IMG/VR virus record: IMGVR_UViG_3300005611_000012
Span: 8,075 to 72,074 of that record
Length of the DNA: 64,000 nucleotides
Direction: 5' to 3' (one strand)
From: a virus
A program made the position numbers and the translations under genes. Shown here piece after piece: positions 8,067 through 42,720 of the stretch (within the stretch, counting starts at the first letter, position 1; the number at the start of each line of letters is the position of its first letter). The notes below the pieces were generated by a model, which saw only the letters and a list, made by a program, of their open reading frames with translations, ran no database searches and was not told where the DNA came from.

Positions 8067-8099
8067 AAAGAACCAAGGCTCTTGTCTTGGTTCTTTTTT
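8067..8099 (+). terminator. Rho-independent terminator
   Basis: AAAGAACCAAGG-ctcttg-TCTTGGTTCTTT followed by further Ts. Confidence 0.75.
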
Positions 8100-30236: not shown

Positions 30237-32893
30237 TGCGATGGATTGGCTTTTCAAACGACTTTGAGCCTAACGATGTAGAAATCCTCATTCTCTCATA
30301 TGAACTTGATTATGCAGAGATGAAGAGAACCTATCTCGATAAAGGCTTGATCGCTCAAGGAGAGCCAGCAAAGCGCATTCTCGATCGTACTGCAGCTGTT
30401 CAGCTGCCCTATCTCCTGTCAGGTCCCAAAAAGAAAAAGAAGCCACTCTCAGTTGCTGAACGTCGTGAGTGGTTCAACGAGCTTTTCGAGAAGCTTAAGC
30501 ATACCAAAATTAAGCACGTATTGATCGCTAATCCCGATTACTACAAGACTTTTACCGGTTCCGCGAAAGCGGCGCTCGAAGTGGGCTCTCTAACACCTCC
30601 CCATGAGGACCACTTCGAGCATCTTAAACATTTGCGGGTTGGGTTTATCCCAAACCACAAAATGGCGTTCTATGATCCAGTGAAGACCGAAGCATCCATT
30701 ACCACAGCAATGAAATCTGTGATCGAGGATAGACAGGGTAAATACAAGGATCCTGGAACTGGCATCATCAAAAAATGCTATTATCCCCAGACACTCGATG
30801 AAATTCGAAACGCACTAACATACATCGTTGTGAATAAGTTGCGGGTGACGTGTGACATCGAAGGGTTTAGTTTGCATATTGATGATGCCGGTATCGCCAG
30901 CATTGCATTCGCTTGGAACAAGCATGAGGGTATTGCTTTCCAAGTTGATTGGGCACCAAATTTCCCAAACCAAGATGTACGTCGGATTCTTATTGATTTT
31001 TTCACCAGGTTTCATGAAACGTACAAAAGGGGCAGAGAACGCCGGCTGATCTTTCACAACGCCAGTTACGACCTAAGCGTGCTTATCCACCAACTATCTA
31101 AAGACACCAGCGCGTACGATTACGAAGAGATTTTCGATGTTCTGGCTTGTGAGGGAATGATCCATGATACCAAAATCATCAGTTACTTGGCTACGAACTC
31201 AACTTCGGGAAATAAGCTTAGCCTTAAAGATCAAGCTGTTGAATTTGCAGGCAACTATGCTGTTGAGGAAATTAAAGACATCACAAAAATCCCGGTCCAA
31301 GAGCTCCTCGAATACAACTTGGTGGATGCTCTAAGTACCTGGTACGTCTATGAAAAGAACATGCCGATCATGATCGCTGATGATCAGATGTCGGTGTACA
31401 AAGAAATCTTCCGGCCGTCTCTCATCGACATTATCGATATGCAGCTCACTGGGCTGCCTGTTCACATGCCTTCTGTTTATGGATCCGAAGCTGAGCTGAT
31501 GAAGCTCAAGGCCCAGGCAGAAGCTACAATCCAGGGGAACCAAGTTGTCCAAGATTACCGTCACCACCTTCGACAAATGGAAATATCCAAGTGGAACGCT
31601 CGACTCAAAAAGAAAAGGGTTACCCTTTCTGACGCCACTGCCGAGTTTAATCCTGGCAGCGATACTCAGCTGGCTGGCTTGCTATTTGATCCAGCCTTCT
31701 TTGGATTCCCAGTCCTTGGAAAAACAGACAGCGGTGCTCCATCAACTAAAGGAGCCATTCTAAAGAACCTAAAGAACCATACGAATGATGTAATCACGCT
31801 CGAACTTCTCGATGCCCTTATCGAATATAAAGACGTGAGTATCCTCTTATCGACATTTATCCCGGCATTTAAGAATGCTCGGAAAGGTCCAGATGGATGG
31901 CATTATCTTCATGGTTCTTTTAACTTGGGTGGTACTGTCTCAGGCAGATTGAGCTCCTCGGATCCAAACCTTCAGAATATTCCTTCTGGGTCCAGACTCG
32001 CTAAGTACATCAAACGATGTGTGAAGGCACCTCCTGGATATCTTTTCATGGGTCTCGACTTCGATAGTCTCGAGGATAAGATCTCAGCACTGACGACCAA
32101 AGATCCCAACAAACTGAAAGTCTATACCGATGGTTATGATGGTCATTGTCTACGCGCTTATTCTTATTTTGGCGATAATATGCCCGACATTGACCCTGCT
32201 TCTGTTTCTTCCATCAATTCTATTGCTGTTAAGTATCCGCAGGAGAGACAAGATTCAAAGGCACCGACGTTCGCGCTGACATATGGCGGTACCCACCATG
32301 CTCTGGTCACACAGTGTGGCATCGACAAAGTCCAGGCTTTGGATATCGAACGGAAATACCATCAACTCTATAAGCACTCAGATGATTGGGTCGATCTCAA
32401 GATCCAAGGAGCCAGAGATAACGGCTATATCACTGTCGCTTTTGGCTTGAGAGTCAGAACACCTTTATTGGGTCAGACACTCAACACAAAGCGTCACACG
32501 CCGTACCAGGCGCTCTCTGAGGCTCGTACTGCCGGCAATGCCCTTGGCCAGTCCTGGGGCTTGTTGAACAATCGTGCTGCCACAGCTTTTATGAAGAAAG
32601 TTCGAGCGCACCCAGTAAGGGCTGACATTAGAATCTGTTGCCAGATTCATGATGCCCAGTATTACTTGGTTCGGGCTGATTCACATATTGTGGAATGGTT
32701 CAATCGAACACTCTCTGAAGAAGTGAAATGGCAAAATCACCCGGATATCAGTCACCCTGATGTTCATCTTTCTGGTGAAGCTTCAATCTTCTATCCGACA
32801 TGGGCTGAAGAGCACAGTATACCAAACTCCGCGTCCATAATGGACATTAAACGAATAGGCCGAGAAATAGCAGAGGAATACCCTGATGGCTGA
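30236..32893 (+). CDS. Family A DNA polymerase (N4 gp39-like)
   Basis: 3'-5' exonuclease TCDIEGF, FHNASYD and YNLVDAL; GTVSGRLSSSDPNLQN; motif A LDFDSLE, motif B RQDSKAPTFALTYG, motif C QIHDA. Confidence 0.95.
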   Translation: MRWIGFSNDFEPNDVEILILSYELDYAEMKRTYLDKGLIAQGEPAKRILDRTAAVQLPYLLSGPKKKKKPLSVAERREWFNELFEKLKHTKIKHVLIANPDYYKTFTGSAKAALEVGSLTPPHEDHFEHLKHLRVGFIPNHKMAFYDPVKTEASITTAMKSVIEDRQGKYKDPGTGIIKKCYYPQTLDEIRNALTYIVVNKLRVTCDIEGFSLHIDDAGIASIAFAWNKHEGIAFQVDWAPNFPNQDVRRILIDFFTRFHETYKRGRERRLIFHNASYDLSVLIHQLSKDTSAYDYEEIFDVLACEGMIHDTKIISYLATNSTSGNKLSLKDQAVEFAGNYAVEEIKDITKIPVQELLEYNLVDALSTWYVYEKNMPIMIADDQMSVYKEIFRPSLIDIIDMQLTGLPVHMPSVYGSEAELMKLKAQAEATIQGNQVVQDYRHHLRQMEISKWNARLKKKRVTLSDATAEFNPGSDTQLAGLLFDPAFFGFPVLGKTDSGAPSTKGAILKNLKNHTNDVITLELLDALIEYKDVSILLSTFIPAFKNARKGPDGWHYLHGSFNLGGTVSGRLSSSDPNLQNIPSGSRLAKYIKRCVKAPPGYLFMGLDFDSLEDKISALTTKDPNKLKVYTDGYDGHCLRAYSYFGDNMPDIDPASVSSINSIAVKYPQERQDSKAPTFALTYGGTHHALVTQCGIDKVQALDIERKYHQLYKHSDDWVDLKIQGARDNGYITVAFGLRVRTPLLGQTLNTKRHTPYQALSEARTAGNALGQSWGLLNNRAATAFMKKVRAHPVRADIRICCQIHDAQYYLVRADSHIVEWFNRTLSEEVKWQNHPDISHPDVHLSGEASIFYPTWAEEHSIPNSASIMDIKRIGREIAEEYPDG

Positions 32894-33206
32894 AGACAAG
32901 AAACATTTCTGGATGGCTGCAGTGGAAATTGCAGCAGTACACCCTGGCAACGAAGATGCCGGTGTGGCGCCATATCCCATGGCGGTTAAAATCAACGTCT
33001 TGACCGAGACAACCCGCAAGCGAATGGACGCAGATGCGATGGATACGCTCCGCCAAGCAGCCCTGATGAAAGCCCAAGAAAAGTATGAATTAAACCCTTC
33101 ATGGGTGGCAAATTTCTTCTTTTTTGGTATCTATTATCTGGGCCTTATGTCGCCGAAAGAGTACATGGGCCGGACCCAACCGACAAAGATTGTCGCCAAC
33201 GAATAG
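32886..33206 (+). CDS. Conserved N4-like protein downstream of DNA polymerase
   Basis: 106 aa; YYLGLMSPKEY C-terminal motif; synteny. Confidence 0.65.
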   Translation: MAEDKKHFWMAAVEIAAVHPGNEDAGVAPYPMAVKINVLTETTRKRMDADAMDTLRQAALMKAQEKYELNPSWVANFFFFGIYYLGLMSPKEYMGRTQPTKIVANE

Positions 33207-38552: not shown

Positions 38553-39311
38553 ATGCCAGACATTGATACCTATTCGCCGCGCAAGGTCACTGACCAAAAC
38601 CGTGACCTGCTCCCTGCAACACATGATCCCGAGAAAAGGAAGACTTACGTGGAAATCACATTGCAAGAACCCGAGATCCAGGAAGCTATCCGGAACTATA
38701 TCCGTGGCATGTACCCGACATTGCCGGACGAAGAGCTCCCTGTGAAAATCATCGCCGGCCGCGGTGAGAATGGCCATAGCGCCACAATCATCAAAGAGCC
38801 CATCCCAATCACCGTAAACTCACCTTCACAGCCTAAGGTCGCCGTGGCGTCCTATACGGCCGCCCAGGAAGATGCTAATCGCCGCAATGGCGAAGAGGCT
38901 ATCACAGAAGGTCCTGAAGATGCCGAGACGATCCAAGAAGCTGATGCGGCTCCAGAAACAGCTGGAGAACCAGAAGAAGATGGAACCGGTCCTGAGCCAG
39001 CCAACATATTCCATGATATCGATTTCGCCATCGACGTCAAAGACGTCGACACCACACCCGATGAACCTGCCCCAGCAGATGAGCCGGAATCGGCGCCGGC
39101 GGAGACAAGTGCAGACGCTCCTGAGACTGTCGCACAAGAAGAACAAGTGACGCCAACAGAGCCTCCTAAAAAGAGCTCGTTGTTCGACACACCAAAACCA
39201 GTCGAAGATAACTCTTCTGCCGCGGAGGCCGCCGGTACGCCTCCAGAAGCGGAGCCTGAAGCTCCAACTGAGGCATCGGCGTCAAAGCCAAAGAGTATCT
39301 TCGACAACTAA
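38553..39311 (+). CDS. N4-like acidic protein with low-complexity tail
   Basis: ITLQEPEIQEAIRNYI...IIAGRGENGHSA N-terminal domain; Glu/Pro/Ala tail with KKSSLF and KSIF. Confidence 0.7.
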   Translation: MPDIDTYSPRKVTDQNRDLLPATHDPEKRKTYVEITLQEPEIQEAIRNYIRGMYPTLPDEELPVKIIAGRGENGHSATIIKEPIPITVNSPSQPKVAVASYTAAQEDANRRNGEEAITEGPEDAETIQEADAAPETAGEPEEDGTGPEPANIFHDIDFAIDVKDVDTTPDEPAPADEPESAPAETSADAPETVAQEEQVTPTEPPKKSSLFDTPKPVEDNSSAAEAAGTPPEAEPEAPTEASASKPKSIFDN

Positions 39312-39670
39312 GATCGGCAGTGAAGATGCTGATGCTTGGGAACCCTGACCAAAAGCACCACCTGAGAGAAATACGTTAGGGCTGTAGCTGTGCCACAAAG
39401 GGCAGCATAACGGCTGAATCTTCTCAAGAGGGTTTACTTCACAAGGGGCGAGGGAGAGATCCCCGAGTCGGTTAGACCCTGGCCGGCACTTAAGTTTCAA
39501 GAATCTCGCACGACGCGCTACCGGGCCAGAGATATTAACTGGGTATATGTAGTGAGGTGGGCATTACCATCCCCTCGAGGATTACGACTTCGGAAGGTTT
39601 TCTCAAAAAGTGGCTGGCTTTGGCAGCATTGAGCCTAGGGAGATCAACGCTGCATTCAAATTTCACCCGA
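39312..39670 (+). ncRNA. Candidate structured non-coding RNA (upstream tract)
   Basis: About 360 nt with no convincing ORF; helices TCGGCA/TGCTGA, CTGGCC/GGCCAG and GCAGCATTGA/TCAACGCTGC. Confidence 0.35.
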
Positions 39671-39679
39671 GAGGACGAT

Positions 39680-40180
39680 ATGAAATATTTCTTCGGAACT
39701 AAACTGGTCAAAGCTACGCCTATGACCCAGGAAGAGTTTGCCCAGTACATGGGCACCACTACGCCAACCAATATGCCTGACCGATCGCCTCCAGGCTATC
39801 TGGTCGAATATAAAGACGGAGGCGGCCCCAATCATGAAAACCACGATAATTATATCTCGTGGTCCCCTAAAGCGGTTTTCGAAGATGCCTATCAGCCTAC
39901 GACGGCTATGGCCTTCGGCCATGCCGTCGAGGCTTTAAAGCGGGGAATGCGGGTTTCTCGTGCTGGCTGGAACGGCAAAGGTATGTTCCTCTATATGGAA
40001 GAACAGACTACTTCCAACGCTGCAATGGAGCGTCACCTGGGGTTGAAAGAACATTTCTCCCATGGCGGCGTCATCATTAAGCGCTCCCATATCATGATGC
40101 TCACAGCCCAGGACGATGTTGTTCCGTGGCTCGCGTCACAGTCAGATATTCTGGCCAATGATTGGTGCATCGTCGAATAG
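39680..40180 (+). CDS. DUF2829 (Tad2-like anti-defence sponge) domain fused to an N-terminal phage domain
   Basis: Start ATG 39680 (GAGG RBS); MAFGHAVEALKRGMRVSRAGWNGKGMF...VPWLASQSDILANDW; N-terminal GTKLVKATPM...GYLVEY...YISWSPK.VFE.AY. Confidence 0.8.
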   Translation: MKYFFGTKLVKATPMTQEEFAQYMGTTTPTNMPDRSPPGYLVEYKDGGGPNHENHDNYISWSPKAVFEDAYQPTTAMAFGHAVEALKRGMRVSRAGWNGKGMFLYMEEQTTSNAAMERHLGLKEHFSHGGVIIKRSHIMMLTAQDDVVPWLASQSDILANDWCIVE

Positions 40181-40234
40181 GGCGTCCGGCGGACCGGTTT
40201 GAAGCGGCGGGTTCAATTCCCGTCACGTCCACCA
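40180..40234 (+). ncRNA. Truncated tRNA-like element (acceptor stem, T arm and ACCA; no normal D or anticodon arms)
   Basis: GGGCGT/ACGTCC acceptor helix, GCGGG-TTCAATT-CCCGT T arm, encoded ACCA; only about 20 nt between the acceptor 5' strand and the T arm. Confidence 0.6.
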
Positions 40235-40255
40235 TTTCTTTTTAAGGAGCCTTTT

Positions 40256-40627
40256 ATGGCTGATACCAAGCTCAAAATTGGGGAAACTGTCTGCTATAAG
40301 TGTGGCTCTCCAACTTTCGTCATCAAGAAAATCGTCAAAGACGGTGATCTCATTCTTTCTTGGTTCAATTCCAAGATTCATGCTCATCAGGATATTCGGG
40401 TACCCCCGCATCTGGTGGAGCTGGTTGAAGACTTCAACGAACGCAAATTGAAGATCGAGACCCAATTCGATAAACGCCTTTATCGCGTTCCAGAGGGTCT
40501 CCCGTTGGATCACATTCTGACGATCGGCTTTGATTCTGCTGAACTTAAACAAAGCTTTCTTGAGCGGATGTTTGATGAGCAGATGCAAGCTCGTATTCTC
40601 GGTGATGACGAACCACTGAAACACTAA
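40256..40627 (+). CDS. Protein with YodC/DUF2158-like N-terminal domain
   Basis: Start ATG 40256 (AAGGAG RBS); KIGETVCYKCGSPTFVI...ILSWF resembles GDxVxLKSGGPxMTV...WF. Confidence 0.55.
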   Translation: MADTKLKIGETVCYKCGSPTFVIKKIVKDGDLILSWFNSKIHAHQDIRVPPHLVELVEDFNERKLKIETQFDKRLYRVPEGLPLDHILTIGFDSAELKQSFLERMFDEQMQARILGDDEPLKH

Positions 40628-41217
40628 AACCCCGTGAGGGGCAGGATCCGTGAAGGCCGAGGGGGGTTTGTTCGCCCAGAGCCGTGTAAGGGATCCGCAG
40701 GACCAAGAGCTGCAGAGCACGGTTACCTGATTGGATATTGGTGTTCTGAAAGATGGTCGCCGGTAGTGACAGAGTTTTTGGTTCGGGCTTCATTTGTCGT
40801 AGTGCCATTCGATGAATGAAGCCCATTAATAGCTCCCGCAAGGGAGTAGGGCCTAGTGATCTACGAAACGCCTTCGGGCATAGAACACCCCTCACCCCGA
40901 ACCAGGGGCCGTGTTAGTAAGGGTTCAAATCCGTAAAGCACGGTTCCTGGTTCTTCATTAAGTTTTATGATGCGATGATCCCGAATGTACCAGGTAGGTG
41001 TATTTAGGCCTGGTTCTCCATACGGTCGACAAGGGCGGCTACGGAGGTAACTACTCTGAGTACAGAGGACAATCACGTCGCAACCGCTTAGCGAAAGCGA
41101 AAGCAGCCTGGAACGGGACAGGGTCCCATGACGTGCGTGGATGAAGAGACGGCGACCTGGGTAAGAGTTGTAATCAAAGGTGTCCCGGTTCGATCCCGAG
41201 ACAGAGATCATCGTATC
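40628..41217 (+). ncRNA. Candidate large ornate non-coding RNA (about 590 nt)
   Basis: No credible ORF; long-range helices GGTGTTCT/AGAACACC and GATGCGATGATC/GATCATCGTATC; GNRA and UUCG tetraloops; two T-loop hairpins; internal duplicated module. Confidence 0.6.
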
Positions 41218-41256
41218 TTAAAGCTTATTGCTTAGTGTCAACATAAGGAAATTTTT

Positions 41257-41604
41257 ATGCACTATCGAATCGTATCTTTTGCCGACATCGATGATCCATC
41301 TGACGTGGATCTGAATGATCTGCCTATAGCTCAATGCGGTTGGTTCGACGGTTATCCTGTCGGAGACCGGGCACTTGAGGGTGTGATGATTAAAGTCGTC
41401 ACCAACAAAGCCAGTGACGCTCTTGAGCTGGTATTCGACCAATGGCCCCCTTCTTTGGCCCAAGGGCATTTTGCCCCCAAGCTGTTAGAGTTTGCCTACC
41501 AGAATGATTTCTTCTCAAGCACTGAGGACGCTAATGATGATATGATTATGATCATCAAACGAGAAGACGATCAGAAGCCTTGGCGATATAATTACGAGGA
41601 TTAA
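41257..41604 (+). CDS. Acidic hypothetical protein
   Basis: 115 aa, AAGGA RBS. Confidence 0.65.
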   Translation: MHYRIVSFADIDDPSDVDLNDLPIAQCGWFDGYPVGDRALEGVMIKVVTNKASDALELVFDQWPPSLAQGHFAPKLLEFAYQNDFFSSTEDANDDMIMIIKREDDQKPWRYNYED

Positions 41605-41649
41605 AAAGCTCATCCGCCCGCGCGTAAATTTTCTGGGAGAAAAAAGTTT

Positions 41650-42411
41650 ATGTTGAAAAACTTAGAGATTCTTTTTTCTCAAGCAGACGAGATGGATATA
41701 TCCGATGGCAAACAAGCGTATAAACGATACCATCGCGTCCTTCTCGGAATCGCAGTATATTATGGGCAACCCATGTCGCGGGTGGTGGCTGCGTTTGCAG
41801 CTCTTAGTCCTAATAATGACTACGTTGGCAATCTTCGTTCTCTTGTTTCTATGCTCGATGCCAAACGCCGAGGGTATGAATATAAAGACGCAATCGTTTC
41901 AACATATAAAGCCGCTAGAGCCAGAGCCAACTTATACCTGACTGGAACGCCTTTCCTGGATCACGCTAAGGGCCTGAAGACTCGCGCATTTTACCAAAAT
42001 TTATTACATCCTGAGATGGACGGGCCAGTCACAGTTGATGGCCATATGTACCACGCCTGGATGGGAACCACCGGAGGCATGAAAGATGCGAACGTTACTG
42101 CAAAACTTTATGCTGAAATATCGGATGCGACGCGCCGGCTGGCAGCTGAGCATGGTTATCTGGCTCATGAAGCACAAGCGATCCTCTGGTATACTAGGAA
42201 GCGTTTGCTCGGGATTGTCTACGATCCTCAATTGGCTCTGTTTGCGCAACACGGAGGCTATCAGCAGGCACATTTCGCGCCTCAAGAAATCCGACCCTAT
42301 GGAGTAGAAAATGAAACTCAAGACTTTAGAATTGACCCGCTGGGAACATGCGAAGGTTCAGCATCACGCAGCAGTCAGCGCTCTCAATTGGATCTCCCAT
42401 TTCCGGGCTGA
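41650..42411 (+). CDS. HhH-GPD/endonuclease III-fold-like protein (putative DNA glycosylase or base-modification related)
   Basis: VAAFAALSPNN...N, KGLKTRAFYQN (HhH-like), PVTVDGHM (catalytic VDxH-like), EAQAILWY. Confidence 0.55.
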   Translation: MLKNLEILFSQADEMDISDGKQAYKRYHRVLLGIAVYYGQPMSRVVAAFAALSPNNDYVGNLRSLVSMLDAKRRGYEYKDAIVSTYKAARARANLYLTGTPFLDHAKGLKTRAFYQNLLHPEMDGPVTVDGHMYHAWMGTTGGMKDANVTAKLYAEISDATRRLAAEHGYLAHEAQAILWYTRKRLLGIVYDPQLALFAQHGGYQQAHFAPQEIRPYGVENETQDFRIDPLGTCEGSASRSSQRSQLDLPFPG

Positions 42412-42559
42412 AGGTCTCCTCAGCATGGAAGAGTTCAATGAGATGGAGCGTTGGCGCCATTTGGCTGCCAAGCTTAGCGGCGATAAGTTTGAACCAATGG
42501 ATGAGACCACCGGCAAAGTCCGTGGTTGGGATCCAGAACAGAGAATGGATTTATCATGA
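42311..42559 (+). CDS. Hypothetical protein (overlaps 3' end of upstream ORF)
   Basis: 82 aa, GGAG RBS at about 42302. Confidence 0.5.
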   Translation: MKLKTLELTRWEHAKVQHHAAVSALNWISHFRAEGLLSMEEFNEMERWRHLAAKLSGDKFEPMDETTGKVRGWDPEQRMDLS

Positions 42560-42720
42560 GGGGCTCATCCGTGGTCGGTATTCTTTGGACATTTTGGTAT
42601 TGTTATGACGATTGGATTGCCAGCGTTAGCGGCATCCCTGAGCTAGGTACCGTCCCATTCTTTCTTTGGTTCGTTATTTGGCTCATCCTGAGTGCAGTGA
42701 CGGTCAGAATAGAAGTTTAA
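42556..42720 (+). CDS. Small two-TM membrane protein
   Basis: Start ATG 42556 (ATGA overlap); convergent with vRNAP. Confidence 0.55.
   Translation: MRGSSVVGILWTFWYCYDDWIASVSGIPELGTVPFFLWFVIWLILSAVTVRIEV

Follow-up and report, generated by a model that had tools for sequence, protein, structure and literature searches.

The DNA analysed in this study is a stretch of 64,000 nucleotides (nt), referred to as the window, which corresponds to positions 8,075 to 72,074 of the 73,486-base virus record IMGVR_UViG_3300005611_000012. An island at positions 39312–42411 of the window, in which non-coding RNA tracts and an anticodon-less mini-tRNA alternate with protein genes, is the standard tRNA slot of the N4-like phage family, devoid of canonical tRNAs in this case, and this slot is probably used as a hot spot for cargo whose parts are independent of one another. 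The identity of the slot is given by its synteny with coliphage N4 and phage Zuri, which carry true tRNAs there, and by an ortholog of N4 gp49. The independence of the cassettes is indicated by the co-occurrence of the parts among relatives, the shuffling of modules, the insertion of open reading frames (ORFs) between modules, covariation, and the finding of the RNA families in unrelated contexts.

The primase of the window phage was 54–55% identical to the primases of N4-like phages, and a virion RNA polymerase (vRNAP) of 4131 amino acids (aa) was encoded on the minus strand. As stated in a first-pass annotation of this DNA, and borne out by the gene order, all the parts of the island are located on the + strand between the replication block (exonuclease, primase, Sak4, SSB, RusA-like and acidic protein genes, 5′ of the island) and the opposite-strand vRNAP. 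The left border is the gene of an acidic protein which, by synteny, holds the N4 gp47 position (38553–39311, + strand). In N4, the equivalent slot is 1.5 kb long and contains gp48, four tRNAs and gp49, a DUF2829 gene; that of Zuri contains three tRNAs. In the window, the gene at 39680–40180 encodes a 166-aa protein, the N-terminus of which was 49% identical to N4 gp49 (E 9e-19), the orthology covering both of its domains; position between the gp47-like gene and vRNAP and the presence of the gp49 ortholog thus both place the island in this slot. The two loci also share tRNA-like T-loop elements between genes, and the window differs from N4 in having no canonical tRNA, no PF13876/Acb4 gene such as gp48, and other RNA modules. 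The T4 tRNA cluster with the stable RNAs C and D is a further comparable locus. No canonical tRNA or transfer-messenger RNA (tmRNA) was found in the window by ARAGORN, whereas N4, Zuri and some of the relatives have tRNA genes, and no Rfam family reached its gathering score in the window.

The distribution of the parts was scored in 12 complete slots of relatives, that of the window included. Of the genes in the slot, the YodC-like gene was the most constant within the clade (12 of 12), followed by the Tad2-like gene (10), the DUF7178 gene (8, one truncated) and the gene of a 115-aa acidic protein (4). The mini-tRNA and a 270-nt RNA were present in three slots each and the full set in one, that of the window genome, the RNA modules being scored by patterns built from the window's clade, by which diverged copies may be missed. 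Locus L004, the RusA of which is 98.6% identical to that of the window, has the mini-tRNA without the 270-nt RNA and carries an additional 128-aa ORF, and the 270-nt RNA without the mini-tRNA was found in L099 and L102. DUF7873, Y-RNA-like RNAs, single short-acceptor tRNAs or unrelated ORFs are held in the slots of other relatives. Both RNA families, Tad2 and DUF7178 were also found in phages or contigs outside the window's clade, in agreement with the expectation that the parts recur in other phages. The parts of the island assort freely and are not supported as one system, and the gene order that they have in common is the inherited synteny of the N4 tRNA/gp48–gp49 slot. The copies possibly missed by the patterns weigh against this reading, as does the adjacency of the YodC-like and Tad2-like genes in most relatives, because of which these two genes may form a partnership. 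On the same side stands the covariance model of the compact T-loop RNAs described below, by which no more of the window's 270-nt RNA than its 3′ block was recovered, at an E value of 0.2.

Each of the two non-coding tracts is made up of a series of RNA modules, self-contained and closed by stems, that are gained, lost and moved singly. The first array (39312–39679, + strand) consists of about nine small structured modules, with hairpins starting, among others, at 39314, 39334, 39374, 39420, 39467, 39512 and 39623. It had been regarded as a structured RNA; its folding energy was ordinary (z −0.06 versus shuffles), but its modules are conserved and covarying. The tract was conserved at 72–88% in L004, L008 and L009, and its modules recur singly, reordered or split by an inserted ORF, as exemplified by the 53-aa ORF between modules in L007; single modules were found in L001, L002, L017, L022, L099 and L100. 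In the last hairpin, 97% of the cells were paired (25–43% in slid controls) and four pairs differed at both positions across the five distinct sequences compared; these are related, so that the covariation is support and not proof.

The tract at 40628–41256 folded far more stably than shuffles (z −5.9), as expected for the large non-coding RNA first proposed, but it does not form a single RNA, since its 5′ half (array 2, 40628–40953, + strand) and its 270-nt 3′ domain (40959–41227) occur apart, in different slots, in relatives. GNRA hairpins and a junction module are found in array 2, together with a 15-bp hairpin (40785–40824), the 10-nt loop of which is conserved, and, at 40899–40953, a long hairpin. 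The 10-nt loop is kept on different stems in L004 and L007 versus L009. Among the three T-loops originally noticed, those at 40212, in the mini-tRNA, and 41189, in the 270-nt RNA, are conserved family features, but the T-like loop at 40923, on a short stem within the long hairpin, is replaced by a non-T-loop sequence in L007 and L009; the 9-nt T-loop pattern has 17 occurrences in the genome, mostly by chance.

Decay of tRNAs, introns and terminators into remnants without present function would offer another origin for these tracts, in keeping with the ease with which modules are lost, with the resemblance of a 37-nt piece (40834–40870) to P7.1/P7.2 of phage group I introns, and with the window mini-tRNA, in which C7·C66 is a mismatch and which falls short of its homolog in length. 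Selection on RNA structure is nevertheless indicated by the compensatory changes inside the modules, the conserved loops on unrelated stems and the family-wide covariation of the T-loop RNAs (both bases changed in 17 of 25 pairs), and decay is considered improbable. A group I intron was rejected, the P7 strands of the APK44 and ZC03 introns being absent in the window and RF00028 giving no match. In Pseudomonas phage ZC03 (L235:1750-2740), an HNH gene is located between group I intron core elements, and the record carries no intron annotation.

A T-loop element enclosed by a long closing stem, and a location in a phage tRNA region, are shared by the window with YrlA-type Y RNAs (RF02553), GOLLD and ROOL. 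Unlike these, the window tract is modular, has no Rfam match and contains no D arm after the T arm. Neither the T-acceptor-D permuted domain nor the Ro60 partner that define YrlA was found in the window, no Ro60/TROVE gene was found in the window genome, and GOLLD and ROOL gave no Rfam match in the window with the same tool that detected GOLLD on other contigs. YrlA-like RNAs fill the equivalent slot in three relatives, after the DUF7873 gene and before a short-acceptor tRNA without CCA (L001:12286-12403, L017:5056-5124 and L100:8753-8825). Further conserved elements of the related loci are a pair of modules with a GAGAGA hexaloop hairpin at its end (L001:9925-10050, L002:9937-10065, L022:7140-7275 and L100:5800-5932), with a weak 23-nt match in Sinorhizobium phage phiM9, and a structured module that contains GGGGCAACC and is not found in the window (L011:6390-6470, L019:8480-8600, L099:7560-7670 and L100:7650-7780).

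The 55-nt mini-tRNA (40180–40234, + strand), the first base of which is the last base of the stop codon of the Tad2-like gene, folds as a 12-bp acceptor-plus-T helix with ACCA encoded, which upholds its initial description. The pairs G1-C72, G2-C71, G3·U70, C4-G69, G5-C68 and U6-A67 are accompanied by A73, CCA and the T arm, so that the features of alanine acceptance (G3·U70, A73 and CCA on a paired acceptor helix) are all found, and the cloverleaf with anticodon arm of a canonical tRNA is absent. A weak Rfam match to tmRNA ends was obtained (E 4.6e-4, 16.6 bits versus a gathering score of 47). G3·U70, A73, CCA and the T arm are shared with tRNA-Ala and with the tRNA-like domain of tmRNA (RF00023), the latter likewise being without an anticodon arm. 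Unlike tmRNA, the mini-tRNAs of this type are 55–64 nt in length, have no message domain and no GAC before the T stem, and in most members contain a self-complementary hexamer. The L004 copy shows a pair-keeping change, and a homolog in another slot (L100:5938-5996), found by synteny and not by pattern, has compensated acceptor pairs with G3·U70 kept. The favoured, though still tentative, interpretation of the window copy is a top-half tRNA mimic that could be charged by alanyl-tRNA synthetase via G3·U70 and would not decode.

Two pattern scans of viral contigs gave at least 65 distinct sequences, mostly ordinary tRNAs. Among the matches listed, at least 11 were independent mini-tRNAs of 56–64 nt, the L100 copy included, in which all three unforced acceptor positions were paired; chance would give about three such look-alikes, and the count excludes two tRNA-Tyr false positives. 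These 11 had no full-length alternative and no ARAGORN call, and six were located inside arrays of 5–32 tRNAs. A palindromic hexamer at the place of the anticodon arm, at most 11 nt from the T stem, was present in 9 of the 11 (1.2 expected), in seven different sequences (P 7e-8; P 8e-4 at any position); the 11-nt limit was set after the first scan, and five of the six new cases from the second scan conformed to it. G3·U70 was fixed by the search pattern, so its frequency across the class says nothing on selection. The self-complementarity of the hexamer suggests that the mini-tRNAs may form dimers. The window copy, probably a member of this wider class, may be degenerate, since it is 4 nt shorter than that of L100, has lost the L100-type hexamer and has the C7·C66 mismatch; another palindrome is present in its hairpin.

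In most relatives, a different two-hairpin element takes the place of the mini-tRNA in the gap between the Tad2-like and YodC-like genes; this element is conserved, starts with UCCAAGGUC and was located at L007:7800-7860, L009:3396-3450, L012:7134-7195, L017:5750-5812 and L099:6848-6910. On some viral contigs, the tRNA array that contains the mini-tRNA was found to include RNase P RNA, tmRNA or GOLLD as well (L108:4030-4350, L151:1887-2183, L117:4843-5286 and L190:2601-3063). N4 itself contains an unannotated tRNA-like RNA (L095:4869-4935; NC_008720, about 32868-32934) with acceptor stem, T arm, CCA and a middle hairpin loop that is the palindromic GUGCAC, and beside this RNA a further T-loop is enclosed by a long stem.

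The 270-nt RNA (40959–41227, + strand) is characterized by a closing stem of 21–22 bp, a GACAAGGG hairpin at 41025 and a T-loop block at 41179–41200. Homologs in L099, L100, L102 and L114 are found upstream of Tad2 and have a closing stem of different sequence; two patterns taken from the clade-specific part retrieved only chance matches or one close relative. By way of a weak match, a compact form was found in Sulfitobacter phage vB_SupP_AX. When the 20-nt T-loop block was used for scanning, 30 viral and 7 genome stretches were obtained, about 22 of which are compact members of 110–135 nt with the GACAAGGG hairpin upstream, several lying directly downstream of SSB-like or other replication genes. 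In 21 aligned members of this compact motif, 17 of 25 predicted pairs were changed on both sides, with a covariation term of −6.6 kcal/mol. The assignment of the window's RNA to the same family was based on the presence of the two signature blocks, in their order, within the closing stem and on the existence of long intermediates (L253 and L262); by these features it appears to be a long-insert form of the strongly covarying motif, which is widespread in phages. As the best candidate for its role, although not a likely one as it stands, it would be a scaffold for protein binding on which an elbow or T-loop mimic is presented. With Rfam at gathering scores and at E 10, applied to the island and 30-odd related loci, both RNA families gave only weak matches to tmRNA ends or tRNA, and neither is described in Rfam or in the literature searched, most subscription papers being outside its reach.

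It is conceivable, but doubtful, that many unrelated phages encode undescribed anticodon-less, alanine-accepting mini-tRNAs which dimerise through the hexamer, and that the island holds one of these together with the long form of a second undescribed RNA family with a T-loop.

The mini-tRNA and the 270-nt RNA might instead be the tRNA-like part and the tag template of a split tmRNA mimic that disturbs ribosome rescue. The alanine identity and the tmRNA-like 3′ end of the former would suit this role, as would a frame in the latter with the end DNHVATA-stop, which is in register with the NYALAA-stop end of host tags, and a stretch resembling the resume site in compact T-loop members. However, the two RNAs are not co-inherited. 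The tag-like frame exists in the window only, shows no synonymous changes and is read on to DRK-stop in relatives; the long variants L253 and L262 and all the compact members are without such a frame, and similarity and complementarity to three tmRNAs equalled those of shuffled controls. GAC before the T stem, which is part of the SmpB site, is also absent, and a split tmRNA is therefore judged improbable. tmRNA identity in the strict sense was rejected (score below the Rfam gathering value, no ARAGORN call and no single gene with both domains); a tmRNA tag or antisense reading of the 270-nt RNA showed no excess over shuffles.

Least probable, and very unlikely, is the original proposal of one integrated RNA-plus-protein system against host immunity, for which the same-strand, abutting parts, the membership of one part in a known anti-defence family and the joint presence of the Tad2-like, YodC-like and DUF7178 genes in 7 of the 12 complete slots would speak, because the co-occurrence of the whole set fails (1 of 12), the 270-nt RNA is missing from the nearest sister locus, where an additional ORF is present, the RNAs change slot between genomes and every family is also found outside the clade. 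The part of that proposal which holds is the anti-immunity role of the Tad2 domain, by homology, but no support was obtained for such a role of the other parts.

The C-terminal half of the protein encoded at 39680–40180 is Tad2-like, as first annotated (PF11195, E 1e-23, 84 bits versus a curated cut-off of 25), and aligned end to end with the solved structures of SPO1 Tad2 and HgmTad2/AcrIIA7 (E about 1e-15). It differs from these sponge proteins in its fusion to a 74-aa N-terminal domain, for which a fold search gave only generic SH3/Tudor barrels (Z at most 4.7, model predicted template modelling score 0.48). Acb4-Tad2 fusions are known (10.1101/2025.07.12.664507), but such a fusion was rejected here since the N-terminal domain is not PF13876: the 166-aa protein gave no PF13876/Acb4 match, N4 gp48 scoring E 9e-35 in comparison. 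Tad2 is a tetramer that binds glycocyclic ADP-ribose (gcADPR) and blocks Thoeris (10.1101/2023.05.01.538930), a sponge function also supported elsewhere (10.1101/2023.11.15.567273), and the window domain most likely sequesters Thoeris-type nucleotide signals. The YodC-like assignment of the 123-aa protein (40256–40627, + strand) was sustained through its homologs, 4 of 10 of which matched DUF2158 (E up to 0.1, best 1e-4; atlas 0.84), but it is weak, the window protein itself having no match. The 115-aa acidic protein (41257–41604, + strand) matched no family.

The 253-aa DUF7178 protein (41650–42411, + strand; PF23802, E 3e-22) had been annotated as HhH-GPD-like, and structure comparison agreed. 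Its model (predicted local distance difference test 86.7) best matched 3n0u, Ogg2 from Thermotoga (Z 10.9, root-mean-square deviation 3.7, 171 aligned residues), all 23 top rows of the fold search were helix-hairpin-helix (HhH) proteins, and Foldseek, with no E value below 0.001, gave top rows in agreement with this result. K110 and D130 were invariant in 119 sequences. The modelled fold is that of the HhH-GPD superfamily, closest to Ogg2-type 8-oxoguanine glycosylase/lyases, with which DUF7178 has the invariant Lys and Asp, 20 residues apart, in common; its identity to Ogg2 is about 14%, and no match was obtained at the sequence level. K110 and D130 would form the catalytic pair, with putative roles assigned by analogy. 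In known HhH glycosylase/lyases, Lys and Asp have catalytic roles. DUF7178 can reasonably be expected to be an active base-excision enzyme; it is described in no paper of the literature searched. A 13-nt GC-rich motif (41611–41623, + strand) is conserved 30–45 nt upstream of a start codon, that of DUF7178 in the window, L004 and L009 and that of an intervening ORF in L007 and L011; it is a possible promoter or processing signal and hints at separate control of the DUF7178 gene.

After DUF7178, at 42311–42720 of the window, two short ORFs or gene remnants were noted, the first stretch being 80% conserved in relatives and the second resembling a 52-aa membrane ORF of L009. The NCBI entry of the protein of the closest relative (P0002 / L004) is assigned to an uncultured Amphritea bin, which may be mis-binning, and the host is not established thereby.

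Co-transcription of the parts is plausible, given their common strand and abutting junctions. The slot would be transcribed by read-through from the upstream replication genes, as suggested by the common strand, by the overlap of the first base of the mini-tRNA with a stop codon, and by sigma-70-like sites at the chance level (five found versus 5.0 expected, N4-type promoters being outside that scan). Host RNases could then free the modules as small stable RNAs, RNase P acting at the 5′ end of the mini-tRNA and others at the closing stems, and every released module would act alone. The Tad2 domain would be a sponge for signal nucleotides, the mini-tRNA a buffer or decoy for host factors that bind tRNA, with no anticodon loop offered to nucleases, DUF7178 a base-excision enzyme, and the T-loop RNA an elbow mimic or protein scaffold.

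A variable tRNA slot is a locus type already known, and as a composite system the island matters little. Its value lies in two defined, covarying RNA families, which can be cheaply made and tested, and a structural assignment is now given for DUF7178, a widespread family. If the class of dimerising mini-tRNAs proposed above is real, its members would be tRNA mimics with two heads, resistant to cleavage by anticodon nucleases and acting against tRNA-targeting defences or ribosome rescue. The locus, all of which is missed by standard tools, bears on the reasons why phages carry tRNA regions.

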